Shown here one piece after another: positions 2,607 through 53,733 of a stretch of 64,000 bases of DNA; the stretch's first letter is position 1; each line of letters begins with the position of its first letter. The stretch spans positions 64,715-128,714 of the forward strand of contig JBGVNW010000056.1 in assembly GCA_045125935.1 (NCBI GenBank), read 5' to 3'. Under the pieces are notes generated by a model. It did no database searches, was not told where the DNA came from, and worked only from the letters and a program-made list of their open reading frames with translations. This stretch comes from Bacilli bacterium. GTDB taxonomy: Bacteria > Bacillota_I > Bacilli_A > RF39 > UBA660. A program made the translations under genes and the position numbers.

Positions 2607-2608
2607 AA

Positions 2609-3286: not shown

Positions 3287-3299
3287 TTTAACTCACTCC

Positions 3300-4981: not shown

Positions 4982-5609
<628 letters not shown>

Positions 5610-5620
5610 TTTTACCTCCA

Positions 5621-6020: not shown

Positions 6021-6046
6021 TGTGAAGTCATAAAGTGTAATCAATT

Positions 6047-22134: not shown

Positions 22135-22297
22135 ATTTATTTTTTGATATGCAATGCTTTTCATATATTTTTGCAAATTTCAAATATAGGTCATCGATTG
22201 CATCTGTATTTATAGCTTCTTTAATCTTATTGTTTCTAAGCTCATGTAATGTATTTATAATAATTCCAATTTCATATTTATCTAATTCTACTTTCAT
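22121..22297 (-). CDS. 58-aa hypothetical protein coupled between pcfB-like and T4CP genes
   Basis: Own translation MKVELDKYEIGIIINTLHELRNNKIKEAINTDAIDDLYLKFAKIYEKHCISKNKYVRQ. It has an ATGA start/stop overlap with the upstream gene, and its stop at 22121-22123 overlaps the T4CP start. Confidence 0.4.
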   Translation of the reverse strand: MKVELDKYEIGIIINTLHELRNNKIKEAINTDAIDDLYLKFAKIYEKHCISKNKYVRQ

Positions 22298-22974
22298 CTT
22301 ACTTTTCTCCTGCTTTTATTAGTTGTTTTATTTTTTATTACCTTTTTATTATTATCTAATTTGATTTCTTGCTCTGCTTTTATTTTTTTTATTTCTTTTC
22401 TTACAGAGGACTTGTTAAAATTAGAACCCTGTTCTAAATATTTTTTGTTCGTCGATGAATGCTCGGACAGAGGGCTTTTTTCCATCTTCGCAATTTGCGG
22501 GTTTGATAGTTTCTCATTATTCTGATTTAATGTTGTATTTTTTTCATTTCGATTATTATTAATTCTTGTAACTTCACTTTTGACCGTTGCCATATTAATT
22601 GTGGCTAATTTAAATCTATTTACTATTCTATTTATTTTTCCAGCATCTTCAGCTCTTACAATAATGTCTATCATTCCATCTGTATTAATATTCTTTTTAT
22701 CAACTATTGCACTAAATAAAACCCCATATCGTTTTGATTCCTCAGTAAACTTTTTAATATCTTCTTGTCTTATCGAAAATACTTTTAATTCTTTTCCTGA
22801 TTTTAACATATTCGAAAGTTTTGTTTTTCCTTTGATTTTTTGTTGATCTTTTGCTATAGCGTATAACATTACAGCAACATTTTTTGCACCACTTCCAGTA
22901 ATTTTTGCAGCCACTTCTATTCCTTGTAATGATATTCTAACTAATTGTTCTGCCGCATCACTTGATATGTTCAT
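22294..22974 (-). CDS. PcfB-family conjugation protein
   Basis: 226 aa. The N-terminus AEQLVRISLQGIEVAAKITGSGAKNVAVMLYAI is typical of PcfB. It lies immediately downstream of the relaxase. Confidence 0.55.
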   Translation of the reverse strand: MNISSDAAEQLVRISLQGIEVAAKITGSGAKNVAVMLYAIAKDQQKIKGKTKLSNMLKSGKELKVFSIRQEDIKKFTEESKRYGVLFSAIVDKKNINTDGMIDIIVRAEDAGKINRIVNRFKLATINMATVKSEVTRINNNRNEKNTTLNQNNEKLSNPQIAKMEKSPLSEHSSTNKKYLEQGSNFNKSSVRKEIKKIKAEQEIKLDNNKKVIKNKTTNKSRRKVR

Positions 22975-24319
22975 TTAATTTGATTACCTCCTCTTTATTT
23001 TCAAATATTTTTTCATCAACTTCTTTTAGTTGATTTTCTATTATAGGAATTCTTTGTTTTATTCCTTCACATAATTTTTTTATTTCTTTGTGTTTCTCTA
23101 TTGTGTATGATATGTTATTAATTTCATTTTGCAATTTCATTTTTTCATCTATCTCAGTTGCTGTTTTTATTTTTTCTAAAAGCTTATACCTTTTATCTTG
23201 TAAATCATTTATTCTTTTTAGATTATTATCTTTATAAAATAAGAACTGTTCATAAGTGTCAATTTTATTACTTACAAGTAGTCTTGTTTCTTTTGATATA
23301 ATTTCCATTTTATTTACTTCTAATCTTATAGAAGCAGGTAATGGTTTATTTGGCGTATATTTAGGAAAAACTTTTAGCAAGTAGCAATAATAAAAATATA
23401 ATCCTTTAATTCCGTTTGTTCTGTTTTTTACTATTGGTGGACATTTAGGTTTGAATTTAGATTTTTGAATTTCTATGTGTTTTTCTTTTCTTTTGTTCTG
23501 ATTCTTTTCTATTTTGTCACATATATTCTCTACACTATATTCTTCTCCAAAACTGCGTATAATTCTTATATTTCTTTTATATGGAGCTTTCCTTATACTT
23601 AACTTTCCTGCTCTATAAGTCAATTCATATTCCATTAATTTCAATAGTCTTTCGAAATCATTATATGATAATGCGTTTGAAATTGCATAATCAATATCTT
23701 TCTTTGCTAATGTATGGTAATTAGAATGTTCTATTGACTTTTGATAATAATTACCATAGTTTATTTTACTTTTTTTACATGTTTTTTCTTCTAATACATT
23801 TAGTCCATATTCTTCACATAGACAGTCTGATATATGCCTTAGCTCTGCATATGTTTCTCTTTTATCATAATATTTCTTTCCATCGTTAAATGATACTGAA
23901 TTAATTACAAAATGATTATGATAGTTATTTGTATTTAAATGAGTTGATACTACAACTTCAAATCTATCTCCCCACATTTCTTTAGCAAGTCTAATGCCTA
24001 TTTCATGTGCTACTTTCGGTGTTACTTCTCCCTCTTTGAAAGATTGAAATGCGTGAAATCCTAAGATTCCATCACATTTATTAAATCTTGTTTTTGTTAT
24101 TAACATTTCTTGATAAGCTATTTGTGGTGTACAATTTATTCCCGTGACATAAAATTGTTGTTCTGTTTTAAAATCAGATTTAGTGTAATTAATTACATTA
24201 TGAAGTGAAGCATATTCTTCTATGTTATATTTTTCTTTATCCGTTTTATTTGTGTCTGTTGTGTATTTTAAGGTAGTGTCTAATCTTTTTGTTATCTTCC
24301 ATATTCCAACTACTGCCAT
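22958..24319 (-). CDS. relaxase/mobilisation nuclease (MobA/VirD2-type)
   Basis: 453 aa. HAFQSF and VSTHLNTNNYHNHFVINSV form a histidine-triad-type motif. The C-terminus is a coiled coil. Confidence 0.8.
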   Translation of the reverse strand: MAVVGIWKITKRLDTTLKYTTDTNKTDKEKYNIEEYASLHNVINYTKSDFKTEQQFYVTGINCTPQIAYQEMLITKTRFNKCDGILGFHAFQSFKEGEVTPKVAHEIGIRLAKEMWGDRFEVVVSTHLNTNNYHNHFVINSVSFNDGKKYYDKRETYAELRHISDCLCEEYGLNVLEEKTCKKSKINYGNYYQKSIEHSNYHTLAKKDIDYAISNALSYNDFERLLKLMEYELTYRAGKLSIRKAPYKRNIRIIRSFGEEYSVENICDKIEKNQNKRKEKHIEIQKSKFKPKCPPIVKNRTNGIKGLYFYYCYLLKVFPKYTPNKPLPASIRLEVNKMEIISKETRLLVSNKIDTYEQFLFYKDNNLKRINDLQDKRYKLLEKIKTATEIDEKMKLQNEINNISYTIEKHKEIKKLCEGIKQRIPIIENQLKEVDEKIFENKEEVIKLNEHIK

Positions 24320-27019: not shown

Positions 27020-27655
27020 TTAATTTTGTTCGCAAATAAATACTAGTTGTTTAGTTTTATCATTCATATCACAAGTTATTAATATTAATCTTGATTTACT
27101 ATTAGAAATATTTAATGATATTTTTCCTGTTTTATTTATAGAATACATATTTGTAACTTTATATGAATATTTATAATTGTTGTAGTAAATATTAACTACA
27201 TCTTCTTTTTCTAATTCTATTAGATTATTGAAAAAAGCTGTTCTTCCAGTTCCCGAATGACCAGCTAAAATCATATTTCCCTTTGCAACATCTGGCATAT
27301 CTGATTCTTTTAATAACTCAATATTTTTATCTACATTATTTAATTTAGAATTCTTTGAATAGAGACCTTCTTTTAAATTTATTTTAGGGATTTCAATAAC
27401 TGCTATATAATTCTCGTTGCTTTCTGTTGTTTTTTGTTCTTTATCACTAACAATATTATCTTCATTGCTAATTACTGGTAAGGATTTTATTTTCACATTA
27501 ATAAATTCTTCAATCTTTTTTTCATTTTTTGCTGCAACAATATTAATAGATAGTAAATTAAATATATAAATAAATATTCCAATTGTTATCAATAGAAAAC
27601 CAGTTATGATTATAATTCTATTTTTTATTATTGTCTTTTTTTCTTTTAATTCCAT
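27020..27655 (-). CDS. sortase-family transpeptidase
   Basis: N-terminal TM, ILAGHSGTG (His) and LILITCD (TLxTC-type Cys). The track ORF starts at 27673; ATG 27655 is the more likely start. Confidence 0.75.
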   Translation of the reverse strand: MELKEKKTIIKNRIIIITGFLLITIGIFIYIFNLLSINIVAAKNEKKIEEFINVKIKSLPVISNEDNIVSDKEQKTTESNENYIAVIEIPKINLKEGLYSKNSKLNNVDKNIELLKESDMPDVAKGNMILAGHSGTGRTAFFNNLIELEKEDVVNIYYNNYKYSYKVTNMYSINKTGKISLNISNSKSRLILITCDMNDKTKQLVFICEQN

Positions 27656-29135
27656 ATATAATTGTGCCACCACCTACTAAAATGAAAATTGAGCAAATTA
27701 TTTCTACAGTATGCATATCATAAGTTAATGTGTCAGGCACTTCTACTTCTTTTTTCTTATCTTTCATATTAGCTTTTATTACTTTGCCATCTTCTGTTAC
27801 AGAAAAATACATTTTTTCGGGTTTTATCTCATAATTTTCTGGTGCCTCACGTTCTAATATATAATAGTCTCCATACTCTATATTTTTTATGATAATTTGT
27901 CCATTATTATCTGTTTTACCTGCAAATATAATTTCATTATTTTCGACATTATATATTTCAATTAATGTATTTGGTAATCCAACATCTGTAGAAAAGTCTG
28001 TCTTAGTGAACACTAATTCTGATTTAATTATTTCATTTTGTAACTGAATTGATTCTTTAACTTTCTTTCCATCTATTGTAAATTTATAATCATCGTGTAA
28101 TTTATATCCTTCTTTACTTTTAATTTGGTGCAAACGGTAATTTCCAAACCCTAAATAAATTGAAGCTTCTCCATTTTCATCAGTTATTAATGTTGTTATT
28201 AATTCATTTGTAGTATCATTATATAATTCAAATTCTGCATTTTCCTCTGATTTATAAATACCATCATTTGATGAACCATATTCTTTTTTTAATTTAAATT
28301 CTGTTGAAATATTTACATTTAATTTTCCACTAATAAATGTTGGATCTCCTCTACTCATACATTTTTGATTAGAGCCATCATAAATTAATGGTTGATTGTT
28401 GTTATTCTTTGCGATCAAATCTATTGTGCCTTCGTAACCTTTTTTAGCTTTAATTATCAGTGTGTTTTCTTCTACTATTAAATCTATTGAATCATTAGAT
28501 CTTACCTCAAAGTATTTTGACAAAACTTTATTAGTATCTTCCAGTTTTACTGTTTCGCCGTTTTTTATAGAAACTTTCTGATTATTAAAACTTACTGTTT
28601 TCCCATGATTAGCAACTAAATTTTTTATTTCATTTATTTTACTATCATATCTATCAATTCTAGTTAACGTACTGTCGCCTTGTTCTACTGGATAAGGGGT
28701 ACTAACTTTATCTGTTATTTCCCAAATTAGCAGTTGCGTTGCTGCATACCAATCTAAATCTGTATGCTCTCCATAACCATATCCATAATATGCTATTAAT
28801 TCTATCTTTTCTATTTCCTCTAAAGTTAAGTTTGTCATATTTAATTTGTCGTCTATTGAATCGTATCCTACAACAGGAGAACCATCTTTAAAATGAACGT
28901 GTGCTTGTATGCAATAAACCACACTATTATCACTACTTCTCCTAATTACATTTTCTCCTGTACTTAACCAAGCAGTTAAGTCCGAATATTTTGTTGTTGC
29001 TACATAGTAAGTATAGCTATAATCAACATAAAGTGTATCACTTATTGTTTTTGCATTAGTTATTATAGGCATTGATGTAACTGTTACTACAGCTACTAAT
29101 AAACTTTTAAACAATTTTTTTATTTTATTTTTCAT
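27618..29135 (-). CDS. surface adhesin with Cna-B/SpaA-type repeats and C-terminal anchor
   Basis: 505 aa with a signal peptide. Two blocks are of the type TDENGEASIYLGFGNYRLHQIKSKEGY and TDNNGQIIIKNIEYGDYYILEREAPENY. The C-terminus has VPDTLTY, a hydrophobic helix and KRKKDNNKK. Confidence 0.75.
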   Translation of the reverse strand: MKNKIKKLFKSLLVAVVTVTSMPIITNAKTISDTLYVDYSYTYYVATTKYSDLTAWLSTGENVIRRSSDNSVVYCIQAHVHFKDGSPVVGYDSIDDKLNMTNLTLEEIEKIELIAYYGYGYGEHTDLDWYAATQLLIWEITDKVSTPYPVEQGDSTLTRIDRYDSKINEIKNLVANHGKTVSFNNQKVSIKNGETVKLEDTNKVLSKYFEVRSNDSIDLIVEENTLIIKAKKGYEGTIDLIAKNNNNQPLIYDGSNQKCMSRGDPTFISGKLNVNISTEFKLKKEYGSSNDGIYKSEENAEFELYNDTTNELITTLITDENGEASIYLGFGNYRLHQIKSKEGYKLHDDYKFTIDGKKVKESIQLQNEIIKSELVFTKTDFSTDVGLPNTLIEIYNVENNEIIFAGKTDNNGQIIIKNIEYGDYYILEREAPENYEIKPEKMYFSVTEDGKVIKANMKDKKKEVEVPDTLTYDMHTVEIICSIFILVGGGTIIYGIKRKKDNNKK

Positions 29136-30046: not shown

Positions 30047-30979
30047 CTACCTTTCCATTCTATTTTTATTTTTTTGTCGATTACTAAAATCAATTACAGC
30101 ATTAATAATATAATTTTCTATTTCCATCTCATTTTTTAAATTATTTGGTAGTACATTTTGTAATTTTCTTCTACTTACTTTTATTTTAGGAATTTGATTA
30201 GGTTTTTCTTCAGAAAATATTTTTTCAATTATATCTTCTGTTAAATTATTTTGTTGGCTTAGTTCTTTTAATTTAATAGACTGCGAAAGCGATGGGGTTA
30301 TGTCGTTATACTCAATTAGTGAAAATAAATATTCTTGCTCTTTTTCTTTTAAATACGATAATTCTACAGCAGGTCGAAATGCTATAATTTCATTATCTAC
30401 TAATTCTAATATTTTGGGTATTAAATTTGTTAATCGGATGTATCGATAAACTTGTACTCTGCTATCATTCTTATCTTTTCCTATTTTCTTGGCACTATCT
30501 AACTTTGTTTCCAGTGGGTACAAAGTTAAATCACTTCTTCTCCCTTGTCTATTCAATGCTTCCATTTTCATTTTGTATGCAAAGGCTTTCTCGCTTGGTA
30601 ATATCTTCTCACGTTGGAGATTACTATCAACCATAATAACAGTTGCAGCATCATCAGTTAATTCTTTAATAATACATGGTATCTTTTCTAATTTTGCAAG
30701 TTTGCTTGCTTTCATTCTTCGATGTCCAGATATCATTTCATATGTACCATCGTTATTACTACGTATTATAGTTGGAACTAAGACCCCATGTTCTTTTATG
30801 CTTTGTGCTAACTTCATAAGGTCATCATCTTCTTTTACTTTAAACGGATGGTTCTTAAAATTACTAATTTGAGAAATTGGTATTTCTACAATTTTTTCTC
30901 TTACTTCATCATTATTGTTATCTATAAAAAAATCATCTAATAACGAAGTTGTTTGATTATCTATGTTATCTACCTCCAA
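30047..30979 (-). CDS. ParB/Spo0J-like nuclease-domain protein
   Basis: 310 aa. NHPFKV and GVLVPTIIRSNNDGTYEMISGHRRMKASKLA are ParB N-domain boxes. Confidence 0.8.
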   Translation of the reverse strand: MEVDNIDNQTTSLLDDFFIDNNNDEVREKIVEIPISQISNFKNHPFKVKEDDDLMKLAQSIKEHGVLVPTIIRSNNDGTYEMISGHRRMKASKLAKLEKIPCIIKELTDDAATVIMVDSNLQREKILPSEKAFAYKMKMEALNRQGRRSDLTLYPLETKLDSAKKIGKDKNDSRVQVYRYIRLTNLIPKILELVDNEIIAFRPAVELSYLKEKEQEYLFSLIEYNDITPSLSQSIKLKELSQQNNLTEDIIEKIFSEEKPNQIPKIKVSRRKLQNVLPNNLKNEMEIENYIINAVIDFSNRQKNKNRMER

Positions 30980-31051
30980 AAAAGCTTATCATTTTATTTG
31001 ATAAGCATATTTCACTTAATTTGTTATGCATACACTTTATCTATTCACAGG

Positions 31052-31823
31052 CGCCGATAAGGTCACTGCTGCTGTATTGTCTGGAGACGCTGATATCGGC
31101 TTTTCTGGAAGTGAGGCCACTATTTATGTTTACAATGGTGGAGAAGAAGACTATTTAAAGACATTTGCACAATTAACACAAAAAGATGGATCATTTTTAG
31201 TATCTAGAGAGAAAATTGATAATTTTACTTTAGATGATTTAAAGGGAAAAACAATTATTGCAGGACGTGCTTATGGTATGCCTGAAATGACTCTTAAATA
31301 TGCCTTAAAACAAAATGGTATTAATCCTGATGAAGAATTGGTATTAGATACATCTGTTGCATTTGCAGCTATGAGTGGTGCTTTTATTGGAGGACAAGGT
31401 GATTTTGTCTCATTATTTGAACCAAATGCATTAGAGCTTGAAAAAAACGGCTATGGATATGTAGTTGCATCAATTGGTGAATTAGGTGGAGTTGTTCCAT
31501 ATACATCATACTCTGCTAGAATTAGTTATATTGAAGAAAATGAGGAGTTAATTTCTAATTTTACTAAAGCAATTCAAAAAGGAATTGACTATGTACATAA
31601 TCATTCTGACAGAGAAGTTGCGGAAGTTATATTAAATCAATTTCCTGATACATCATTAAATGATTTAGAAAAAGTAATTGCTCGATATAGAGAAATTGAA
31701 GCATGGCCTACTACTACAACATTTAATGAGGAGTCATTTGATCATCTTCAAGATATAATGCTTGATTATGGAGCAATTGATGAAAAGGTTCCTTATAGTA
31801 AGTTGATTTATAATGAAAAATAA
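31052..31823 (+). pseudogene. ABC substrate-binding protein, 3' fragment
   Basis: It continues ...ANG|ADKVTAAVLSGDADIGFSGSEA in the same frame. 221 nt (5800-6020) plus 772 nt gives 993 nt, or 331 codons. Confidence 0.85.
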
Positions 31824-32228
31824 ATTGCTTAGTATTAATAATTTGGGGAAATTTTATTATAGTAAAAAAGATGAAGTTGAAGCAATTCGTGATGTAAGTT
31901 TTGATATATTTGAAAATGAATTTATCTCAATTGTTGGGCCAAGTGGTTGTGGAAAATCAACTATTCTATCAATTCTTGGTAACTTAGAAGATAAAACTAA
32001 TGGAGATGTTACTTTCTATAAGGATTTAACAATTGGTTATATGTTACAAGATGATTGTTTGTTTTTTTGGAGAACAATTCTTGATAATTGTCTTATTGGA
32101 TTAGAAATTAATAATAATTTGACTATCGAAAATATTGAATATGTTATTTCTTTACTAAAAACATATGGTCTTTATGATTTTAAGGATAAATATCCCTCTA
32201 GTTTATCTGGAGGTATGAGACAAAGAGT
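31813..32228 (+). pseudogene. ABC importer ATPase, fragment 1 of 3 (Walker A to LSGGMRQRV)
   Basis: GPSGCGKST (Walker A) and LSGGMRQRV (signature), then a break. The track ORF reads on into element DNA. Confidence 0.9.
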
Positions 32229-32308
32229 TCTACGAATACTGTATACACACGGGATAATTACTTACAAGTGGCTTATAACCCTTATAAATAATGGAAAAGA
32301 GGTATATT

Positions 32309-42309: not shown

Positions 42310-43923
42310 ATGAATGAAATGGAGAGTGTTAGAGAGAAGATATTATTAAGAGTTGTTATTTATTTAAGATTATCAAATGAAGATAGAGATAAAATTAATA
42401 AAGATGATGATAGTGAATCTATTAAAAATCAAAGAAATATGTTGCTAGATTATATCGATAAAAATCCACAATTTATGTTGGTTGATGAATATTGTGATGA
42501 AGATTTATCGGGGGCTGGTACTTATAGACCTGAATTTGAAAGATTAATTAGAGATTGTGAAAATGGGAAAATTGATGTAGTTTTATGTAAAAGCCAATCT
42601 AGATTTTCAAGAGATATGGAAATCGTTGAAAAGTATATTAACAATAAATTCAAAGAATGGAATATAAGATTTATCGGTTTATCTGATAATGCTGATACTG
42701 ACAATAGCGGTAATAAAAAATCAAGACAAATAAATGGATTAGTTAATGAATGGTATTTAGAAGATGTTTCAGATAATATTAGAAGTGCTTTTAATTCAAA
42801 AATGAAGCAAGGAGAATTCATTTCTCCTTTCGCCTCATTTGGTTATGAAGTATCTAAAGAAGATAATAACAAGTTAGTTGTTGATCCTGTTGCTAGTGAA
42901 GTTGTTAAAGAAATATACGATTTATATTTAAAAGGTATGGGATTTACTGGAATAGCTCATTACTTAAATGATAAAAATATTCCTTGCCCCTCTCTTTATA
43001 AATATAGAAAAGGTATTAAATTAAATGTAATTAGTAATAGACCTAGAGAGGAAATTAAATGGAATACAAATGCTATTAAAACAATATTAAAAAATGAATT
43101 ATATTTAGGACATTTAATTCAAGGAAAAAGAACTACCGTTAGTTATAAAAATCATAAAGTAATTAATAAACCTGAAGATAAATGGATTCGTAGAGAAAAT
43201 ATGCACGAAGCTATAATTGATGAGGAAACATTTGCAAAAGTTCAAATTGCTTTGAAAGAAAGAACAAAACCTATGAAATCAACAGGAATTGTTCATAACT
43301 TCTCTGGCAAAGTATTTTGTAAAGAATGTGGTCGCTATATGAGAAAAAAGAATTCTTCTAAACATGAATATCTTGTATGTTCTAATAACAGAGATGGTTA
43401 CAATGATTGTATAAATAAAGCAGCGATTAGGTATGATGCTTTAGAGGAATTAGTATTAAGTCATATTAATAAAAAAGTTAAAAAGTTTTATGATTTAAAT
43501 ATTTTAGAAACAGAATCTTTGAAAAAAGAAAATAATAAGTTCACTAAAAGAATTAATTTATTAACAAAACAAAAAGAGACCATAGTTAATCAAATGGCAA
43601 AGACTAAAAATTATTTAAAAAATCTTTATGAAGATAAAGTTAATGGAATAATTAATGCAGAACAATTTAAAGAATTAATTACTAATTATAATAATGATGA
43701 TGAAAAGTTAAAAGACCAATTAAAATCTATTGAAAATGAGATTAACTATTATACACTAAAAGAATCTTCAAATAAAAATACAAAAGAATTATTTAATAAA
43801 TATCAACAATTAGAAAAATTAAACAGAGTTATAGTAGATGAATTTGTAGATAAAATCTATATCGGCAAAATCAATGAAGAAACAAATACAAGAGATATTG
43901 AAATTAAATGGAATTTTGAATAA
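42310..43923 (+). CDS. large serine recombinase (IME integrase)
   Basis: 537 aa with RBS AGGAGG. VVIYLRLSNEDRD, NQRNML and LCKSQSRFSRD form the resolvase domain. A zinc-ribbon region (CKECGRY...CSNN) and a C-terminal coiled coil follow. Confidence 0.9.
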   Translation: MNEMESVREKILLRVVIYLRLSNEDRDKINKDDDSESIKNQRNMLLDYIDKNPQFMLVDEYCDEDLSGAGTYRPEFERLIRDCENGKIDVVLCKSQSRFSRDMEIVEKYINNKFKEWNIRFIGLSDNADTDNSGNKKSRQINGLVNEWYLEDVSDNIRSAFNSKMKQGEFISPFASFGYEVSKEDNNKLVVDPVASEVVKEIYDLYLKGMGFTGIAHYLNDKNIPCPSLYKYRKGIKLNVISNRPREEIKWNTNAIKTILKNELYLGHLIQGKRTTVSYKNHKVINKPEDKWIRRENMHEAIIDEETFAKVQIALKERTKPMKSTGIVHNFSGKVFCKECGRYMRKKNSSKHEYLVCSNNRDGYNDCINKAAIRYDALEELVLSHINKKVKKFYDLNILETESLKKENNKFTKRINLLTKQKETIVNQMAKTKNYLKNLYEDKVNGIINAEQFKELITNYNNDDEKLKDQLKSIENEINYYTLKESSNKNTKELFNKYQQLEKLNRVIVDEFVDKIYIGKINEETNTRDIEIKWNFE

Positions 43924-44914: not shown

Positions 44915-45049
44915 CTCTGTTCCCGACAATTTGTCGGAAAGTAATAAAAATCTTAAAAATACAAGTTAAACATAAAAAAGCGAAATTTTAAAAGCCTTAT
45001 TTTTCAAGGCTTTGATAAGGTATTAGTGTCTACATTATATTCGTAGAGT

Positions 45050-45211
45050 TGCTTTAATTAGGACACTAGCAATGAAACCGGATATATTACTTTTGGATGA
45101 GCCAATGTCTGCGTTAGATTCTCAGTCAAGACTTGCAATTAGTGATGACATATATAAAATTATCAAAAAAGAAGGTAAAACTGCTGTTATGGTTACACAT
45201 GATATTGCTGA
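45050..45211 (+). pseudogene. ABC importer ATPase, fragment 2 of 3 (Walker B to H-loop)
   Basis: ALIRTLAMKPDILLLDEPMSALD...GKTAVMVTHDIAE. It is only 162 nt and is bounded by two different elements. Confidence 0.9.
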
Positions 45212-45261
45212 GACAATCTTCTTAATTAACATAAATGTTTTATAAAAAAAAAGAAGATTTC

Positions 45262-46800
45262 TTATTCTTCGTAAAATTTTATATTTATTATTTCGACCTT
45301 ACCTTTTACTTTATCTCTATCTTTATTTACTACAACTATTTCTTCTATAAAATTTGTTAAAAAATCAAATTTTTCTTTATTAGATAGATATTTCCAATGT
45401 TCTTTTATTGTTTTGGGAATTTTTACATTATCTTTATTTTGTTTAGGTAATATAACTTTTTCCAATCTATCAATTTCTTCTTTTAATCTTTGACTTTTCT
45501 TATTTAATTCATCAGTCATATATTTTAATTGTTTATCAGTTATTTTATTTATCATGAATAAGTCCATTACTTCTTTCTTTTTTGCGGATGTTTGGCCAAG
45601 AAATTTTTTTAAAGTTTTTAATTCTTCTATTTCAGCATCATTTTCTTTAATTTCAACTTTGTCTATTTCAGTTAATGCTTCAATATTATTTATATAATTC
45701 ATAAATGCTTTCTCTACTTTAGAATGACTCATCCCCAAACAGATGCATAATTTCTTTTCTCTATTAATACATCGATAGCTATTGAAGACCATTTTTGTTC
45801 CGTCTTTTTTATTTTTATTTGTCCTACTACTGGTTAATTTTTTTCCACAAAGTCCACAAACTAGTGTTCCACAATAATAAACGTCTTCCTTAGGAAGATT
45901 GGTACGATGTGACTTTTTTATTTTATGAATTTTCTCTTGAACTTGATACCATGTTTTTTTAGAAATGATTGGTTTATGTTTTCCATCTGTAATAAGTTCA
46001 TCTTCTTTTCCTATATGATATCTTACTTTTCCTATATATGTAGGATTAGTTAAAATGAGACGAATTGTTTTAGGTACCCATATACTATTAATAGTATATT
46101 TTTTACCTGTTTTACGTTGTTTTACTACTCTACCGGCATTTTTAGTAGGAATTTTTTCCGCATTTAAAATATTACATATTTCTGTAAAGCTTTTGCCTTC
46201 TATATACATTTTAAAAATACGTTTTACTATTTTCGCTTCAGCTTGATTAATTGTCTGCTCTTTTTCATGTATTTTACGATTATAGCCATAACATGTTGTG
46301 GCACAAGCTAGTGTATAACCTTGTTTTACTTTTTCCTCAAGTGCTACTTTTATTCTTTCAATTGTTTGTTCTCTTTCTAGCTGCGCTACTGCACCATTAA
46401 TTCTGACTGAAAATCTGCCTGTTGCGGTAGAAACATCTACTGTTCCTCCAGCTAGTGTAAATACTTGTATTCCATATTGCTGTATTAATTCAATTATATT
46501 TTCCGTATCTTTGCTATCACGTGTTAATCTGTCAAATTTATATAATACAACTACATCAATTTCTTTTTTTTGAATATCATTGATTAGTCTTTTTACCGCT
46601 GGTCTATCTTTAATATTTTTTCCACTTTTACCTTCATCGGCATATATATCAAATATTTTAAAGCCTTGCTGCTTGGCAAATTTACTTAAATTTTCTTTTT
46701 GTGCAGAAACAGAATATCCTTCTTTTACTTGTTTTTCAGTTGATACACGTATGTATAAACCAGCATTTATTAATTTTTCTGTAATAATAGATTCCTCCAA
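45262..46800 (-). CDS. large serine recombinase (mini-element integrase)
   Basis: 512 aa. AGLYIRVSTEKQ, YSVSAQ and VLYKFDRLTRD form the resolvase domain. A Cys-rich zinc ribbon (CGLCGKK...CINREKKLC) and a coiled coil follow. The TTG start lies 4 nt after the stop of the 32-aa ORF. Confidence 0.9.
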   Translation of the reverse strand: MEESIITEKLINAGLYIRVSTEKQVKEGYSVSAQKENLSKFAKQQGFKIFDIYADEGKSGKNIKDRPAVKRLINDIQKKEIDVVVLYKFDRLTRDSKDTENIIELIQQYGIQVFTLAGGTVDVSTATGRFSVRINGAVAQLEREQTIERIKVALEEKVKQGYTLACATTCYGYNRKIHEKEQTINQAEAKIVKRIFKMYIEGKSFTEICNILNAEKIPTKNAGRVVKQRKTGKKYTINSIWVPKTIRLILTNPTYIGKVRYHIGKEDELITDGKHKPIISKKTWYQVQEKIHKIKKSHRTNLPKEDVYYCGTLVCGLCGKKLTSSRTNKNKKDGTKMVFNSYRCINREKKLCICLGMSHSKVEKAFMNYINNIEALTEIDKVEIKENDAEIEELKTLKKFLGQTSAKKKEVMDLFMINKITDKQLKYMTDELNKKSQRLKEEIDRLEKVILPKQNKDNVKIPKTIKEHWKYLSNKEKFDFLTNFIEEIVVVNKDRDKVKGKVEIINIKFYEE

Positions 46801-46992: not shown

Positions 46993-48486
46993 TTAATTTT
47001 CTTCTGGAATATCTTCTTCGTCGTTATCTTCATCTTTCTTGCTATCTATATATATTTTAGTACTTATTCCAGCTACTGCGGCTAAGCCTATACCTTCTAA
47101 AAATGGACCTGTTTCAATTTTTCTTGTTCCTGGTTTTTCATTTATTCTAGGTATTACATAATCGTTTTCGCTAGTTTTACTAGTTGTTGTATTTTCATAG
47201 CTACTTGCAATTTTACTTAGGCTTCCTGCTAAAGCCATTGAATTTTTATTGAAACTTTCTGTTGGGCTTTGAGTAGTTGTCTGATTATCAGTTAAATTAT
47301 TTGCTATAAAATTATTTATTTTTTCTCCTAGTAAAGTCAGGTTATTAGTGTTATTAGTTGTTGTTTGTGTTTGAGTTGTTTGAGTATTATCACTAAATGA
47401 GAAAGTTGAACTTATATTTGACTTTATTTCTGAAATTTTCTCAGTAGCTGGATTATTTGTGAGTGTATCTTTTATTTCTGAAAGTTTTTCAGTAACCGGA
47501 TTATCAATAATTGCGTCTTTTATAACGTCTGTAAGTGATTTTTCGGTGCTTGCACTTACAGATGTTAAACTAGTCGGTACTGATAAAGTTGTTTGGCCAC
47601 CATTTGATTGACTGGCACTAATCATTGTTTTTCCTGTTGTATGTGAACTAATACATGCTTCATCATTGCAGTATCCAACATGATGATATTCTCCATCCTC
47701 ATGCCATGCTGTATAGATATCATACCAAACCTCTACATCGCCTTCTGCAGTTCCTTTGAGCTCTCCTTTTCTGACCATTTCTGCCATCCCGCATAGGTCT
47801 ACTACCATTCCTGTTCCAAGGCTTGTTTCAACAAGATCCCCTTTTCTGTACTCAGCAGCTTGCTCAGTTCCGTCCATATGGGGAATATCTGCAGCGACCA
47901 TGACGTAGTCACCATACATATATACTCCGTCTTCTCGTATCCAGAAATCTAAATCAATTCCTTGTTTTCTCATAAGTGTTGCTAAGTTACTTGGATCTAA
48001 GTCACACCAAGTTTCTTTAGTTAATCTACCATCTGCGCCATAATATTTAATACTTCCTACGGCCGCAGTAAGAAAATTAGAATCCCATTTTGGATTTACT
48101 CCATATTTTTCGTAATATTCATCTAATGTATAATTTATTCTTTCTTTATCCAAATTATATCTTCTTGCGGTATTAGGATCTGCAATAATTATTGCATCAT
48201 CACCCAAAATTACTTTTCCATCATTGTACTTTTCAAGTTCTCTAGTTATAACACTAATTGTATTTTGCATTTGTTCTACTGCCGAAGATACTACATCACC
48301 TTTTTCTATATAAGGAATACCTCGATTGTAGCCTGAACTATTAATTCTAGAAATTCCGCGTTCGATTTTCTTTGATATATCTTCAAGGATGTCTTGGGCA
48401 TCTTCAAGTTTTTCTATTCCTTGTTCTACATAAGCAGGTATATAAACTATTTGATCCTTATTTATCAAATTGATTACACTATTCAT
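46993..48486 (-). CDS. 497-aa multi-domain protein: helical N-terminus, central globular domain, Thr/Ser/Asn-rich linker, C-terminal TM + acidic tail
   Basis: It has no Sec signal. The N-terminal ~95 aa are helical. The central region (about 100-290) has VAADIPH...GDLVETSLGTGMVVDLCG...VEVWYDIY, faintly like a 3D/double-psi-barrel fold. TTQTQTTTNNTNN is low complexity. The TM is GPFLEGIGLAAVAGISTKIY, followed by DEDNDEEDIPEEN. Confidence 0.6.
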   Translation of the reverse strand: MNSVINLINKDQIVYIPAYVEQGIEKLEDAQDILEDISKKIERGISRINSSGYNRGIPYIEKGDVVSSAVEQMQNTISVITRELEKYNDGKVILGDDAIIIADPNTARRYNLDKERINYTLDEYYEKYGVNPKWDSNFLTAAVGSIKYYGADGRLTKETWCDLDPSNLATLMRKQGIDLDFWIREDGVYMYGDYVMVAADIPHMDGTEQAAEYRKGDLVETSLGTGMVVDLCGMAEMVRKGELKGTAEGDVEVWYDIYTAWHEDGEYHHVGYCNDEACISSHTTGKTMISASQSNGGQTTLSVPTSLTSVSASTEKSLTDVIKDAIIDNPVTEKLSEIKDTLTNNPATEKISEIKSNISSTFSFSDNTQTTQTQTTTNNTNNLTLLGEKINNFIANNLTDNQTTTQSPTESFNKNSMALAGSLSKIASSYENTTTSKTSENDYVIPRINEKPGTRKIETGPFLEGIGLAAVAGISTKIYIDSKKDEDNDEEDIPEEN

Positions 48487-48499
48487 AGTTATCTTCTCC

Positions 48500-48802
48500 T
48501 TACAATTCTTTCTCTTCTTGACTTCTTAACCATGCCATATATTCTTCATATTGTGCTTGGGCATTTGCTCTTATTGTTGTAGTTACACCGTCATTTATTT
48601 GGCTACACTTTTGAACTTGAGTTTTTAATAAATCAAGTTCTGCATCAAGTGAGGAGTTGATATCACCAAATTGTAAATTATTACAATTTAAAAGACTCAT
48701 GGCATTATCAATGCCACTTTTTACATTATTAAACATCTCTATTGCATTATCTATTTCTGAACAACCTGCTTCTACTGCTGCTAAATCAACATACTGTGCC
48801 AT
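48500..48802 (-). CDS. WXG100-like ~100-aa helical-hairpin protein (motif degenerate: QFGD)
   Basis: 100 aa with two predicted helices either side of NLQFGDINSSL. It lies 13 nt upstream of the 497-aa gene. Confidence 0.5.
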   Translation of the reverse strand: MAQYVDLAAVEAGCSEIDNAIEMFNNVKSGIDNAMSLLNCNNLQFGDINSSLDAELDLLKTQVQKCSQINDGVTTTIRANAQAQYEEYMAWLRSQEEKEL

Positions 48803-48856: not shown

Positions 48857-48977
48857 TTTTAACATTTTTATGGTCAAGTGAAAATATTTAATTTTTATTT
48901 GTTATATTTAAGTGTAAATTTTAACTAAATTGTTTCTATTTTGACATTTTGGTTATGCTTATAAAAACTATTGGTGA

Positions 48978-49149
48978 GGCTATAAGTATGTCAGATAAAA
49001 TTGTTGTTTTATCTAAGAGGCCAGCTATTGTAAAGAACATTTATGAAATTGAATTAGATAATAAATCTACTCCTATTAATAATCGTAGTTCTAAAAACTT
49101 TTCTTCATACTATGAAGCGATTTGGAGGGATTTAGATGTCCATATCTAG
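48978..49149 (+). pseudogene. ABC importer ATPase, fragment 3 of 3 (C-terminal)
   Basis: AISMSDKIVVLSKRPAIVKNIYEI... The fragments of 416, 162 and 172 nt sum to 750 nt, or 250 codons. Confidence 0.9.
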
Positions 49150-49924: not shown

Positions 49925-49963
49925 AAAGAGGTTTTGAATTAAAAGTTCATTTAACCTCTTTTT
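49923..49963. terminator. bidirectional intrinsic terminator
   Basis: 11-bp stem aaaaagaggtt/aacctcttttt between the convergent permease and WXG-cluster genes. Confidence 0.7.
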
Positions 49964-49969
49964 TTATAT

Positions 49970-51124
49970 TTAAACTGTTAGTTTATATGTTTCATCAGAA
50001 CTTGCGAAAGCTTGTCTATCAGTATTTTCTGTTCCGTTATATACATTTGTCATATCTCTTATAGAATATCCCCCACTATTTAACTCAGCATATGATCTGT
50101 AATTTAATACAATACCAGCTTCTGAACCTCGGGCTTCTGCTACTACGAAACGATTATTTTCTGGATCGTTTTCTATAATCATACCAACATGCCCACTACT
50201 TACCATTACATCACCAGGTTGGGCTTCTGACCAATTCTGATATGCTATGCTTTCTCCAACATAGTTAAAGTCAGTAACTGGTCTCCATTGAAATCTATTA
50301 GGCGTTCCCTTATCTACACAGTAAGAGGTCCATGGATTACAATCTACTCCGTTCATTACATATGCTGTGCTTACATACGGATTTGAGTTTGTTCCTTGGT
50401 GTTTATAGTCGAGTTTAACACCTTTATCAGCTGCTAGTTTCAATAAGGTTAGCGCAGTATTTACTGCTGCTTCTCTTCCAGTATATGTATTTTGAATTGT
50501 ATTTAATATACTTGTGATGTATTGAAAACCTGAGCCCTCTACGACATTTCCGTTTTCATCAACTTGGTTGTAGAATGAATCTAGAGTTGCATTTCCTTTA
50601 AGTTGTATTAATAAATTTTTACCTGCCGCTTTTTCTTCAGCAGTAAGTATATGGTCATATGCTGCCAATAGTTCACTAATACCTGTTACATAATTGAATT
50701 CAACATTGTAATTTACTAACGTAGTAGACGTTCCTACTGGTGTAACTTGAGCTAATATTCCCTCTATTTGAGTCCTTAAATTTTGATTTTCTTGTTCTAA
50801 TTGACTAATTTGGCTCTGGATAGAAGCTCTCTCACTAGCATTCTTTTCATTATCAGGAATACACATTAATTGAAATTTTAGTTTGGCTATTTGTTCCTTA
50901 TTTTGTTTATACTTATTCAGTAAATCTAATGCATCGAAGAAGCCACTTAATTTTGCTCTTTCTGCATTTAATTTGTTTACAACATTAGATAGTGCTGAAA
51001 CTAGTGCTGTTGCAGCTGATCCAGACCAAATTAAATCAAATGCAATATTTCCAATACTTTTTTGTGTACTTTCTAAATTAGTAGATTCATTTTTTCCATT
51101 TGTGGCAGTTTGACTATAACTCAT
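49970..51124 (-). CDS. WXG-type N-terminal domain fused to an NlpC/P60 peptidoglycan endopeptidase
   Basis: 384 aa with no Sec signal. It has FDLIWSGSAATAL (WxG), then a coiled coil. The C-terminus has GVDCNPWTSYC (Cys) and GDVMVSSGHVGMII (His). Confidence 0.7.
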   Translation of the reverse strand: MSYSQTATNGKNESTNLESTQKSIGNIAFDLIWSGSAATALVSALSNVVNKLNAERAKLSGFFDALDLLNKYKQNKEQIAKLKFQLMCIPDNEKNASERASIQSQISQLEQENQNLRTQIEGILAQVTPVGTSTTLVNYNVEFNYVTGISELLAAYDHILTAEEKAAGKNLLIQLKGNATLDSFYNQVDENGNVVEGSGFQYITSILNTIQNTYTGREAAVNTALTLLKLAADKGVKLDYKHQGTNSNPYVSTAYVMNGVDCNPWTSYCVDKGTPNRFQWRPVTDFNYVGESIAYQNWSEAQPGDVMVSSGHVGMIIENDPENNRFVVAEARGSEAGIVLNYRSYAELNSGGYSIRDMTNVYNGTENTDRQAFASSDETYKLTV

Positions 51125-51141
51125 AATGTATTTCTCCTAAC

Positions 51142-51408
51142 TTATTGATTTTCAGCCGTGTTTACAATTTCGATTAACATGTTTTCAATATTTTTCATTT
51201 TATTATGATATTCTTTTCCATCCGCAACTAAATCATTAGTTACATTTGTAAATCCATCAGCAGCATTTCCTTTCCAGTACTCATTTAATGTTTTAACCTC
51301 TTGTTGTATTGAATCCATAATATCAATTGCATCATTGTTTAACTGAGTCATTTTAGCTCCCCAGGCTTGTAAAACGTCTTTTTCAATGTATGTATACGGA
51401 TCATTCAT
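51142..51408 (-). CDS. WXG100 (ESAT-6/EsxA-like) protein
   Basis: 88 aa from the ATG at 51408, after AAGGAGGA. It has a central EYWKGNAADGF, a canonical WxG followed by AAxxF. Confidence 0.75.
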   Translation of the reverse strand: MNDPYTYIEKDVLQAWGAKMTQLNNDAIDIMDSIQQEVKTLNEYWKGNAADGFTNVTNDLVADGKEYHNKMKNIENMLIEIVNTAENQ

Positions 51409-51412
51409 TTTA

Positions 51413-51706
51413 TTATCCTCCTTGAGTATAAGCTTGCTCATGTTCAGCAGCACATCTTGCTTTTTCTTTTAACTTCATTACATTATAAGAAAGCTTTAAT
51501 GATCTATTGTTATGGATTGTCATATATCCGTTACAGGTATTATTGAATGCTTCTTTCATAGCAGTATCTTTCCATGATGGCGAACTGTAAATATTATCGA
51601 TTAGACTTTGAATTTCCTCTAATTTACTATTGTAATTATCAATTAAATTTGTTAATCTTGTCGCGCTTGCTGTCATCTCTTCTGGAACGTGTTTATATTT
51701 ACCCAA
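51413..51706 (-). CDS. WXG100-like small helical protein (SWKD variant)
   Basis: About 97 aa from TTG 51706, with RBS AGGAGA 7 nt upstream. The alternative ATG is 51676. It has a central SPSWKDTAMKEAF. Confidence 0.5.
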   Translation of the reverse strand: MGKYKHVPEEMTASATRLTNLIDNYNSKLEEIQSLIDNIYSSPSWKDTAMKEAFNNTCNGYMTIHNNRSLKLSYNVMKLKEKARCAAEHEQAYTQGG

Positions 51707-51761
51707 AAAATCATCTCCTAGAAAAAAAACTTTTTGTAAGCATGTTATAAAAAGTTTTAAA

Positions 51762-52043
51762 TTATTCAGTTTCCATTGTATTCGCAATGGCAATTATATC
51801 GTTTGCTGATTTTATAACTTGTCCATATGTTAGTTTGAACATACTTCTAAATTGATCTAATTCAGCTCTTAACTCTGCTGGTTTTCTATTTCCTTGATAA
51901 ACTGCTGTATCAACATTATCAATTTTTTCTATTTCTCTTGAAACGTTATTTAGTAATGATTCTAATTCATTTGCGATTGTTTTCATTCTTGTTGCTTTTG
52001 CCCTAGCTTCCGCAGGGTTAACTATCATTCTTCCGTCTGCCAT
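51762..52043 (-). CDS. WXG100-like small helical protein (YQG variant)
   Basis: 93 aa with RBS GGGAGG. It is a helix-turn-helix hairpin with a central AVYQGN. Confidence 0.55.
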   Translation of the reverse strand: MADGRMIVNPAEARAKATRMKTIANELESLLNNVSREIEKIDNVDTAVYQGNRKPAELRAELDQFRSMFKLTYGQVIKSANDIIAIANTMETE

Positions 52044-52063
52044 GTATATAACCTCCCTATTTA

Positions 52064-52381
52064 TTATTCTAGTGGATTTCCACTATTAATTCTACTTTGA
52101 AGATATGCTTCATCACTATCAATATTTTGTGCGCGATTTTTCATTAATTCTGCACATTCATTAAAAGTTGTTTCATATTTTAAATACTCTCCTTTTTGTG
52201 CCTGAAAAGTATTTAAGAAATCTGAAGATAATCCTCCTTTAAATTGTGATGATCCTGCAAAGTCTTCTACTAGTGAATATAATGTACGTATTAAGCTACC
52301 ATAATCACCAGAATTACTATCCATTGTAGTTGACCAATTTCTCATTTGATCTGTGTCGTGACTTACTATTCCTGTCGCCAT
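52064..52381 (-). CDS. WXG100-like small helical protein (FKG variant)
   Basis: 105 aa with RBS GAGGAGG and a central SQFKGGLSSDF. Confidence 0.5.
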   Translation of the reverse strand: MATGIVSHDTDQMRNWSTTMDSNSGDYGSLIRTLYSLVEDFAGSSQFKGGLSSDFLNTFQAQKGEYLKYETTFNECAELMKNRAQNIDSDEAYLQSRINSGNPLE

Positions 52382-52460
52382 ATTTAAACCTCCTCTATTT
52401 TTTTATTATATCATCATATCATTTTATAAAAAACATTATTTACAAAAGATTACACTTAAT

Positions 52461-53576
52461 TTACTTATATCCATATCTATTTCCAGTTTCAGTTATCATA
52501 TTATCACTATATGATGTAGAGCCATTAGATCTATAGAACAGATAATCATGATTTCTTACTCCTGATAAGCAATCTGAAACGGCTTTACTTACAGTTTCTG
52601 TATAATTACCGTTTAACCTACTTTCGTAACTTCCTGAGTCATAAACAGCAAATTGTCCTGGTGCAGTTATTTGTTGAATTGGATTTCTAGAATATTTATT
52701 TACCCAATTAGATGTTTCACATCTGTTTAAAATTGTTGTTGTTACTGCTAACGCATCATCATAAGTACCATCACTTTCAGCAGCTACTACAGCACAAATC
52801 ATATCATAATCTGTACTTGATACTTCATATTTTAAATTTCCTGTTGTGACTTGAAATCCTTGATCAGTATTATTGTGATATACACTTAAATCAAGATCAG
52901 AATTAGAGTCTCCTGGCGATATAACAACGTTACCATAAGAGCTTATTTGTCCTAGTTCTGGATATACTACTGATGGTGACTGATAAACTGTCCTTTCAGT
53001 AATTTCACCACTTACATCACCTGTTTTTTGTGTGTTAGGATTTGTATTTACATATTCTGATGCCAGTATTGCTGCTGATTTAAATGTCCCTGTTGACACT
53101 GATTCCTCCGCATTATTACTTTTAATACCACTAATTAGGCCTGCTGCAAGTGTTACTGGTGTTGTTAGTCCATCAATAAAATCACCGGTAACTTCTTCTA
53201 AAGCATTGGCTATTTTTTTTGATGGGCTTAATATAGCTGCACTATACGATGTTGTTAAAAAATCCCCAACTTTTTCTGTTATTCTGTTTAAAGAAAATAC
53301 ACCGGTATCCGTACTAATATCATCTTGATCTAATGTTGCTATTCCATTGGTATAATCAGCTATATTTTTTGAAACATTTTTCATATCTGAGGCAATTGTT
53401 TTTAAATTACTACGTAATGTATTTCCTGCAGATGAAACGTCCATTCCATCATAATCACGTGCTTGTTTAATAATTGTATTCAACTGTCCTACTGAATCGT
53501 CCAACTGATCAGATAATGTTTTTAATTGATTAGATAAACTTGACAATTCATTAACGTCTGTAATTTCAGTCTGCAT
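52461..53576 (-). CDS. helical N-terminal (LXG-like?) domain fused to an SleB/CwlJ-type cell-wall hydrolase domain
   Basis: 371 aa with no Sec signal. The N-terminal ~100 aa are helical. The C-terminus has MICAVVAAESDGTYDDALAVTTTILNR...ITAPGQFAVY, typical of the Hydrolase_2 (SleB/CwlJ) family. Confidence 0.6.
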   Translation of the reverse strand: MQTEITDVNELSSLSNQLKTLSDQLDDSVGQLNTIIKQARDYDGMDVSSAGNTLRSNLKTIASDMKNVSKNIADYTNGIATLDQDDISTDTGVFSLNRITEKVGDFLTTSYSAAILSPSKKIANALEEVTGDFIDGLTTPVTLAAGLISGIKSNNAEESVSTGTFKSAAILASEYVNTNPNTQKTGDVSGEITERTVYQSPSVVYPELGQISSYGNVVISPGDSNSDLDLSVYHNNTDQGFQVTTGNLKYEVSSTDYDMICAVVAAESDGTYDDALAVTTTILNRCETSNWVNKYSRNPIQQITAPGQFAVYDSGSYESRLNGNYTETVSKAVSDCLSGVRNHDYLFYRSNGSTSYSDNMITETGNRYGYK

Positions 53577-53733
53577 TATATATACTCACCTCTATTATTT
53601 TTATTATAGCATAAATTATCATTATAATAAAAGGTCTTTTTAGTTTTACATTGATTTTACATATCTATTTAAAACATAAAAGACTCATGTTGAAAATAAG
53701 ATATTATACTTAATTTCCGTATGAGTCCTGTTT

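Follow-up and report, generated by a model that had tools for sequence, protein, structure and literature searches.

The 64-kb window analyzed here (64,000 nucleotides of contig JBGVNW010000056.1 in the Bacilli assembly GCA_045125935.1; GTDB lineage Bacillota_I, Bacilli_A, RF39, UBA660) contains a compact operon of six open reading frames (ORFs), designated A to F, on the minus strand at positions 49970-53576. With a probability of about 0.65, we read this operon as a substrate module of a type VII secretion system (T7SS) with peptidoglycan hydrolases as its cargo, the evidence on the target leaning slightly toward the producer's own wall. Type VII export is itself probable when both hypotheses on the target are counted together, and the lineage probably exports wall hydrolases by this route, since its relatives keep similar genes beside the gene of the ATPase EssC. 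The two large proteins, A and F, each combine a WXG-type helical N-terminal domain with a hydrolase domain, and the four small proteins, B to E, are WXG100-like helical hairpins.

The cluster had been proposed in an earlier note made from the letters of the window and their translations, and its six genes proved real. Against three relatives, dN/dS ranged from 0.04 to 0.30 for the six genes (0.04 to 0.19 for B), compared with 0.04 to 0.08 for the neighboring FIST gene and 0.18 to 0.21 for the neighboring permease gene; all six genes are thus under purifying selection, similar to that on the housekeeping neighbors. The order [A × 0-2]-B-C-D-E-[F × 1-3] was kept in more than 12 independent loci at 30 to 96% identity, with B-C-D-E-F constant and the cassette usually next to the same ABC permease gene, at its 3' end. 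The low dN/dS and the kept order together indicate real genes rather than chance ORFs, and intact genes under such strong purifying selection point to a cassette in use. Homologue clusters numbered 82 for F and 102 for A, almost all of them metagenomic, and neither protein had an identical entry in public assemblies. In a one-genome-per-species scan, relatives of F occurred in metagenome-assembled genomes alone, labeled uncultured Bacilli or "Candidatus Coprovivens" (placed by NCBI in Bacilli incertae sedis) except for two whose labels are evidently wrong. The sizes first reported for A (371 amino acids [aa]), B (105 aa), C (93 aa), and F (384 aa) stand, whereas those of D and E had to be corrected: orthologue alignment moved the start of D to a TTG codon at 51706 (97 aa, from a 126-aa ORF) and that of E to an ATG codon at 51408 (88 aa, from a 103-aa GTG ORF). 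An AGGAG-type ribosome-binding site lies ahead of each of the six genes, and the gaps between successive genes from A to F are 79, 20, 55, 4, and 17 bp; the G+C content of the window is ∼27%.

For all four small proteins, WXG100 was the best family in both Pfam (PF06013) and NCBIfam, although every score fell below the curated cut-off (values are given below). Of the family profiles, each built from 11 or 12 orthologues, those of B, C, and E aligned with EsxA/ESAT-6 structures end to end, in keeping with the length and hairpin of WXG100 proteins. Protein B (gene at 52064..52381, minus strand, as are all genes of the operon) is a WXG100-like hairpin with an F47-K-G turn and a near-invariant C-terminal tail, I-D-S-D-E-A..L...I; it matched Pfam WXG100 at E 0.009, and its profile matched EsxA (3zbh) at E 0.002. 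Protein C (51762..52043), with a Y49-Q-G turn, matched Pfam WXG100 at E 1.2e-4 and, by its profile, the WXG100 structure 3gvm weakly (E 0.03). Protein E (51142..51408) is the canonical member, with the motif W-K-G-N-A-A-D-G-F; its matches to TIGR03930 (E 6.7e-7) and Pfam WXG100 (E 4.9e-5) were both below the cut-off, and its profile matched the ESAT-6-like structure 4i0x at E 0.006. Among E orthologues the motif reads W-x-G-N-[AS]-A, with G invariant and W present in at least 90%. Protein D (51413..51706; W45-K-D turn) is the most divergent of the hairpin proteins. Its Pfam WXG100 match has an E of 0.0057, and 7 of 12 D orthologues matched the same family (best E 6.6e-4); the D family profile had no significant sequence match in the PDB, and the profile-profile comparison of D with E was not significant. 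D is tied to the family through B, as the D and B hidden Markov models (HMMs) match each other at E ∼3e-6, and through the weak Pfam matches. The turn motifs picked out by the earlier note are real and conserved across orthologues as F-x-G in B, Y-x-G in C, W-x-D in D, and W-x-G in E. In profile-profile alignments, the F-K-G, Y-Q-G, and W-x-G turns fell in register, C aligning with E at an hhalign E of 5e-4. Such variants of the turn are known among Lap/Esx-like helpers (PMC11217815).

Protein A (52461..53576) consists of a WXG100-like hairpin, a linker, and a SleB/CwlJ-type (Hydrolase_2) domain, as had been read from its sequence. Its AlphaFold2 (AF2) model has a pLDDT of 69, with the Ser/Asn/Gly-rich linker disordered. 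The N-terminal domain (residues 1-88; 53313..53576, minus strand) is a helical hairpin for which Foldseek returned Staphylococcus aureus EsxA (2vs0; TMt 0.77, probability 0.99), PE25 (4kxr_A; TMt 0.75), and other WXG100 structures, and which matched NCBIfam ESAT6_2 at E 8.7e-4. In the homologue alignment, its Y42-D43-G turn is invariant and its end motif, (F/L)-D-x-D-D-(F/I), near-invariant; F-D-x-D-D-F closes the domain in most homologues, and the copy in the window reads L-D-Q-D-D-I. One might speculate that this acidic end motif acts as an export signal, Lap1 having an FxxxD motif for export. The C-terminal domain (residues ∼213-368; 52473..52940, minus strand) is the better conserved part, at ∼60% identity compared with ∼35 to 40% for the N-terminal domain, and it holds the motif AAESD..YDDALAV..TILNRC with an invariant E267. 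The protein in the window matched Pfam Hydrolase_2 (PF07486) at E 7.9e-5 with 23.7 bits, below the 27-bit cut-off, and TIGR02869 SleB weakly and likewise below the cut-off (E 3.6e-4), while 29 of 32 A homologues matched Hydrolase_2 at E ≤0.01 (best E 2.8e-6). A PDB sequence-profile search with this domain gave coiled-coil noise alone and no hydrolase match, and in the Foldseek search with the A model hairpin matches dominated, adding no independent support for the hydrolase fold. The N-terminal peptidoglycan-binding domain of SleB is absent from A, with the EsxA-like hairpin in its place.

Protein F (49970..51124) comprises a long WxG helical N-terminal domain, a short linker, and an NlpC/P60-type Cys-His peptidase, again in agreement with the first description. 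The turn residue W33 (W-S-G) and the putative catalytic residues C262 and H312 are invariant among 29 homologues. The AF2 model (pLDDT 82.6) shows a helical hairpin (helices 3-126), the short linker, and a compact alpha/beta domain. For the N-terminal, targeting-type domain (residues 1-129; 50738..51124, minus strand), Foldseek returned PPE41 (4w4k_B; probability 1.0), a member of the PE25-PPE41 type VII substrate pair. For the C-terminal NlpC/P60/CHAP-like domain (residues ∼206-366; 50027..50509, minus strand), it returned the NlpC/P60 domain of the Clostridioides difficile autolysin Acd24020 (7cfl; probability 1.0, TMt 0.66), and matches to the F model also included Cg1735 and PcsB. In a PDB profile search, F matched the NlpC/P60 structure 8er5 at E 0.007. 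F itself has no Pfam match, and precomputed PF05257 or PF00877 matches exist for 8 of its 82 homologues; as modeled, the C-terminal domain has the papain-like Cys-His fold of NlpC/P60/CHAP peptidases.

In all six proteins the N terminus lacks a hydrophobic stretch strong enough for a signal peptide, as judged by a hydrophobicity scan alone and no dedicated predictor (Kyte-Doolittle 12-residue mean over the first 37 residues; maximum ≤1.03), in line with the earlier observation that a Sec signal is lacking. This sets F apart from PcsB, CwlO, RipA, and Cg1735, which also place a long helical N-terminal domain before a CHAP or NlpC/P60 domain. Those enzymes bear a Sec or Tat signal and are regulated by FtsEX or by partners that lie beyond the membrane, whereas F has no signal peptide and has instead a conserved WxG turn and small WXG partner genes.

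The layout of the operon resembles that of helper-assisted export of helical-domain effectors, which is established for EsaD with EsxB, EsxC, and EsxD in S. aureus and for Tel with Lap1 and Lap2 in Streptococcus intermedius (PMC13492133, PMC10801868, PMC9600955). Those systems and the operon have in common a helical N-terminal domain followed by a C-terminal enzyme, the lack of a Sec signal, and an operon in which two to four WXG100-like hairpin proteins of ∼100 aa adjoin the effector. They differ in payload, which here is a peptidoglycan hydrolase rather than a nuclease, NADase, lipid II phosphatase, or membrane toxin; in the absence here of an immunity gene and of a DUF4176 or EsaE chaperone; in the lack of LXG, DUF3130, and DUF3958 matches; in the two effectors that go with four helpers; and in having no EssC nearby.

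The evidence that links such a cassette to a type VII ATPase came from relatives. In locus L025, from a Bacilli genome bin, two small genes, a gene for an F-like NlpC/P60 protein, three small genes, a CHAP gene, and a LysM-Hydrolase_2 gene are followed directly by the gene for a 1510-aa FtsK_SpoIIIE protein, whose more distant homologues have the FHA + FtsK architecture and include one named EssC by NCBI. Five more loci of the same EssC clade (L027, L029, L031, L032, and L033) show the same pattern. Each has EssC and, immediately downstream, a 79- to 88-aa protein (weak YukD match, E 2.6e-4); WXG100-like genes number two to four per locus, and hydrolases, which are CHAP, LysM-Hydrolase_2, or Peptidase_M23 enzymes, one to three. 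L031 (4653-12798) is an eight-gene locus between nusG and rpsF-ssb-rpsR, with EssC (1501 aa), the small downstream protein (79 aa), four small WXG-like genes, an M23 protein with a WxG N-terminal domain, and a LysM-Hydrolase_2 protein, and is apparently a complete minimal T7SS locus. The similarity to the window extends to individual domains and helpers. The hydrolase domain of A is 48 to 60% identical to EssC-adjacent LysM proteins (48 to 51% by BLAST against those of L027, L025, and L031), which its HMM matched at E 1e-53 to 1e-70. The HMM of the F N-terminal domain matched the EssC-adjacent CHAP protein of L025 (11703-12644; E 1.4e-13) and a protein beside the L033 cluster (E 1.4e-15). Among the small proteins, the B HMM matched the first EssC-adjacent WXG100 protein of L027 (E 2e-6) and the C HMM the second (E 3e-5), and the E HMM matched EssC-adjacent WXG proteins in L031 and L032. 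WxG turns were found in the EssC-adjacent hydrolases with an F-type N-terminal domain and in the M23 protein, and none of the EssC-adjacent hydrolases inspected has a signal peptide. In L007 (16011-19157) and L008, a second cluster flanks the ABC operon on the side opposite the cassette, with the substrate-binding-protein gene and upp as its neighbors. It consists of four WXG100-like genes followed by two Peptidase_C39_2 proteins, one with an F-type N-terminal domain (HMM E 1e-17), and two of its WXG100-like genes show 52 to 69% identity to WXG100 genes that adjoin EssC in other relatives. No single locus in a metagenome scan with EssC carried both EssC and the cassette itself.

The earlier suggestion that the cluster follows type VII logic is therefore supported as to a substrate module, by the EssC linkage in relatives and by the EsxA and PPE41 folds, but its T7SSb frame is wrong for the relatives' EssC loci: no EsaA, EssA, or EssB Pfam family was found among the genes flanking EssC in five relatives, and most of the EssC proteins lack an FHA domain (no FHA match in the L025 clade; an FHA domain in the L084 clade). 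The relatives' loci look like a pared-down T7SS variant of the kind described by Garrett et al. in 2024, which are built on TsxA, TsxB, and TsxC (T7SSc to T7SSj; PMC11217815). The likeness is closest to T7SSg (TsgA1/A2, TsgB, an FHA-less TsgC, and TsgL), with which the relatives' loci share an FHA-less EssC, a YukD-like small protein, a WXG100 pair, and the lack of EsaA, EssA, and EssB, a likeness drawn from gene content (PMC11217815). Near the relatives' EssC, however, there was no sign of a DUF5050 protein, kinase, phosphatase, or EspG-like component, and for the published variants the candidate substrates are not wall hydrolases but nucleases, Rhs proteins, and lipases, which come with immunity genes (PMC11217815).

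Several observations weigh against a type VII substrate module. The WXG100 scores of B to E lie below the curated cut-offs (16.7 to 24.0 bits against 27.3 in Pfam; 19 to 29.4 bits against 44.85 for TIGR03930), as does the Hydrolase_2 score of A. The LXG-like and Lap-like labels that the earlier note had attached did not survive, since at E ≤1 neither A nor F matched LXG (PF04740) and none of B to E matched the Lap families DUF3130 and DUF3958; the N-terminal domains of A and F, at ∼88 and ∼129 aa and with Y-D-G and W-S-G turns, are shorter than the LXG domain. The 64-kb window holds no EssC, EsaA, or EssB gene, no YukD-like gene, and no core WXG100 pair, so that the earlier statement of no secretion machinery nearby is right for T7SS genes; it overlooked an unrelated conjugative type IV element at ∼6 to 31 kb, which supplies the sole large secretion ATPases of the window. 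More distant F homologues (∼40% identity) stand alone, with no small partner genes. L084 (TsaD 72%, FIST 70%), which by its housekeeping genes is the nearest relative with an EssC, shares the tsaE-tsaB-rimI-tsaD-FIST...permease-ATPase synteny with the window and lacks the cassette, its FHA-type EssC coming with different, unannotated substrates. This EssC (1519 aa) is carried on an island (7554-17283 in L084; counterparts at 1842-11968 in L092 and 3931-10978 in L076) together with a YukD-like gene, three small helical genes, a serine recombinase, and two paralogous 330- to 410-aa proteins with no Pfam match, and in L084 the island sits between the ABC ATPase gene and the pieces of the substrate-binding-protein gene, which is the integration hotspot of the window. 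EssC on a recombinase-associated island implies that T7SS genes are mobile in this group, and the presence of EssC can therefore not be read from relatedness.

Another possibility is that the operon is an orphan module in a genome that has no T7SS, its products leaving the cell by another route (holin-like release or lysis of a subpopulation), remaining cytoplasmic, or decaying. It would fit the window without EssC and the nearest EssC-bearing relative, whose T7SS genes could be gained and lost with their island; it would fit, too, the absence from the window of the second WXG cluster that L007 has by the same ABC operon. Decay, however, is at odds with six intact genes and low dN/dS across genus-level divergence, the same module architecture stands beside EssC in six relatives (L025, L027, L029, L031, L032, and L033), and we know of no role for WXG-type N-terminal domains other than T7SS targeting. 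We therefore regard an orphan module as improbable and prefer a substrate module served by a T7SS.

As for how such a module would work, A would cleave glycan strands in the manner of SleB and F would cut peptide stems as an NlpC/P60 endopeptidase, both reaching their substrate with no Sec signal. B to E, probably as two pairs (B/C and D/E), would bundle with the WXG-type N-terminal domains of A and F, and an EssC-type ATPase encoded elsewhere in the genome would recognize the elongated helical complex and export it. After export, the hydrolase domains would act on the cell wall. The evidence leans slightly toward the cell's own wall, for autolysin-type remodeling, cell separation, or opening the wall for secretion, because no immunity gene was found, B-C-D-E-F occupies a fixed chromosomal site across the lineage, and conservation is higher in the catalytic domains than in the targeting ones. 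EssH of S. aureus, a CHAP peptidoglycan hydrolase that is needed for T7SSb secretion and is thought to open the wall for the machinery or what it secretes, can serve as a model of such self-directed action (PMC13059805, PMC10765036). EssH differs from A and F in having a Sec signal, no WXG domain, and no small helper genes, and in being an accessory of the machine rather than a substrate.

The closest competitor keeps the same T7SS export and makes the hydrolases antibacterial effectors that, delivered to neighboring Gram-positive cells or released onto them, degrade their walls, with self-protection through wall chemistry or tight regulation in place of a dedicated immunity protein. Most large T7SS substrates characterized in Bacillota are antibacterial toxins, and such substrates come with immunity partners. 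Two findings count against the self-directed part of our reading and suit antagonism. The F N-terminal domain is shuffled onto many payloads, at least four types, as in polymorphic effector arrays; besides the CHAP and C39-like proteins above, its HMM matched proteins with the payload of H (a neighboring gene described below) in L001 and L017 at E 1e-30 to 1e-33. The numbers of A and F paralogues also vary, and A is cut down or absent in some relatives: in the closest one (L005/L006; 8186-8653) it is a 155-aa protein that keeps the hairpin and some of the linker but lacks the hydrolase domain, in an otherwise intact cassette. The G-H pair, a probable extra module, moves with a serine recombinase. 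Envelope-degrading cargo has a precedent in EatA of Mycobacterium abscessus, an endo-D-arabinanase that is proven ESX-4 cargo with the immunity protein EatI, and NlpC/P60 payloads are predicted for T7SS toxins of Actinomycetota (PMC13444075). The EatA-TapA1/TapA2 system has, like the operon, a T7SS helical-bundle domain, small Tap/Lap-like partners, and an envelope-cutting enzyme, but it belongs to another phylum and type (T7SSa/ESX-4) and has a cognate inhibitor, of which there is none here (PMC13444075; SigM regulon operons, PMC13491425). Known wall-targeting T7SS and type VI secretion system toxins have adjacent immunity genes (PMC13444075), whereas no immunity-like gene lies beside any of ∼20 hydrolase genes examined, including the positions after A and F, as the earlier note had seen in the window. 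In A, moreover, the catalytic domain is more conserved than the targeting domain, the reverse of the usual polymorphic-toxin pattern, and the B-C-D-E-F block keeps a fixed chromosomal site under strong purifying selection. Antagonism is thus a serious but rather unlikely alternative to hydrolases directed at the producer's wall.

A broader reading, which we offer tentatively, is that in these low-GC, uncultured Bacilli of the gut the minimal T7SS of the relatives, which lacks EsaA, EssA, and EssB and consists of an FHA-less EssC with a YukD-like protein and WXG100 proteins, is a dedicated Sec-independent exporter of the cell's own peptidoglycan hydrolases. Five or more catalytic types (SleB-like, NlpC/P60, CHAP, C39-like, and M23) may then each have gained a WXG-type N-terminal domain, the hydrolases may share sets of four helpers with no immunity genes, and the operon in the window may be a satellite cargo locus. 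If this holds, type VII secretion would serve here as a housekeeping autolysin exporter and not as a toxin or virulence system. If EssC exports A and F at all, peptidoglycan hydrolases would join the known T7SS cargo of Bacillota, four helpers serving two effectors would make a tractable model, and such export would point, in reduced-genome gut bacteria, to either a new class of wall-degrading weapon or a Sec-independent autolysin pathway. The overall logic is familiar; what is new is hydrolase payloads with no immunity genes and two effectors sharing four helpers, and there appears to be a lineage in which hydrolases are the main T7SS-linked cargo. Reviews from 2023 and 2026 list no peptidoglycan-hydrolase T7SS cargo in Bacillota, naming only the Sec-dependent EssH and unexplained CHAP genes at some loci; to our knowledge no such hydrolase is a demonstrated T7SS cargo in that phylum, and no literature on a T7SS in Coprovivens or RFN20 was found. 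The 2026 review treats as open both the passage of substrates across the thick wall and the functional link of CHAP proteins at T7SS loci to secretion (PMC13492133). The lineage studied here is a natural case for these questions, since several hydrolase classes carry the secretion tag themselves, with WXG helpers, beside an unusually small T7SS set in relatives.

The surroundings of the operon are rich in mobile elements. A conjugative type IV element of ∼25 kb (6021-31035) splits the substrate-binding-protein gene of the ABC operon into pieces at 5905-6021 and 31035-31817. It encodes a serine recombinase (6047-7606), a CHAP hydrolase (14071-15555), a VirB4-like ATPase (15552-17867), ArdC, VirD4 (20323-22176), a MobA/VirD2 relaxase (22958-24319), a Toprim protein, a thioester/SpaA adhesin (27618-29135), and ParB (30047-30979). 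It also contains a pemK RNA motif at 8047-8126 on the minus strand (38 bits, E 0.0027), the only Rfam match above the gathering score in the window. With VirB4, VirD4, and a CHAP hydrolase of its own in the same window, and with A of the SleB/CwlJ type, one could take A and F for genes of a mobile element (a conjugative system or prophage lysis) or for intracellular sporulation or germination enzymes. We consider this very improbable. The element is a discrete insertion ∼19 kb away with its own hydrolase, and the cassette stands at the same site in relatives that lack it, for which reason membership of the cassette in the element was rejected. A phage or plasmid origin was rejected as well, F having no relative in 50,697 phage and 72,556 plasmid records and A one weak match, to an Aerococcus phage protein. 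A sporulation role is countered by the exchange in A of the SleB peptidoglycan-binding domain for an EsxA-like hairpin.

The ABC ATPase gene of the same operon lies in three pieces (31819-32238, 45042-45218, and 48952-49146). The first insertion (32.2-45.0 kb) carries glycosyltransferase, PMT_2, and GtrA genes, HTH regulators, an AAA_25 protein, a Mob_Pre relaxase, a serine recombinase (42310-43923), and a Bro-N protein. The second (45.2-48.95 kb) carries another serine recombinase (45262-46800) and the G-H pair. The three junctions of insertions into the ABC operon showed no direct repeats of 10 bp or longer. Gene G (48500..48802, minus strand) encodes a small helical protein of 100 aa with no significant WXG100 match, and a helper role is proposed for it from its position only. 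Gene H (46993..48486, minus strand) encodes a 497-aa protein with a helical N-terminal region, a payload at residues ∼139-275, a Ser/Thr-rich stretch, and a C-terminal hydrophobic segment. The payload has no Pfam or PDB match, and an initial guess from the sequence that it is a 3D/DPBB-type lytic transglycosylase was dropped for want of such support. It is fused to an F-type N-terminal domain in 619- and 624-aa proteins of L001 and L017, and the G-H pair directly follows F in the closest relative (L005/L006), whereas in the window it lies inside the split ABC ATPase gene with the serine recombinase. G-H is a probable third helper and effector module.

The operon appears to be a transcription unit of its own. 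An extended -10 box, TGCTATAAT, promoter-like and predicted from its letters, lies at 53603..53611 on the minus strand, 27 nt upstream of the start codon of A. Beyond it, the amino-acid-kinase gene is followed at ∼53680-53730 by a hairpin and T-run, which would separate the two transcription units. At the other end, the convergent ABC permease gene lies 45 bp beyond F, and the hairpin between them (49925..49965), with T-runs on both sides (RNAfold -14.1 kcal/mol for a 75-nt stretch), is a likely bidirectional terminator. Cyclic-di-AMP-type riboswitches control wall hydrolases, and one upstream of the operon was considered and excluded, with no Rfam match, riboswitches included, in 46.8-54 kb. 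Elsewhere in the window, the uracil phosphoribosyltransferase gene (4982-5621) is split into overlapping ORFs at 5262-5621 and 4982-5260, each matching half of the L007 orthologue at 79 to 86% identity; the split reflects a frameshift or else an error of assembly. At its left end (1188-3998), the window holds a CotH kinase-like gene (472 aa), a DUF4956 gene, and a VTC-domain gene, which are unrelated to the operon.

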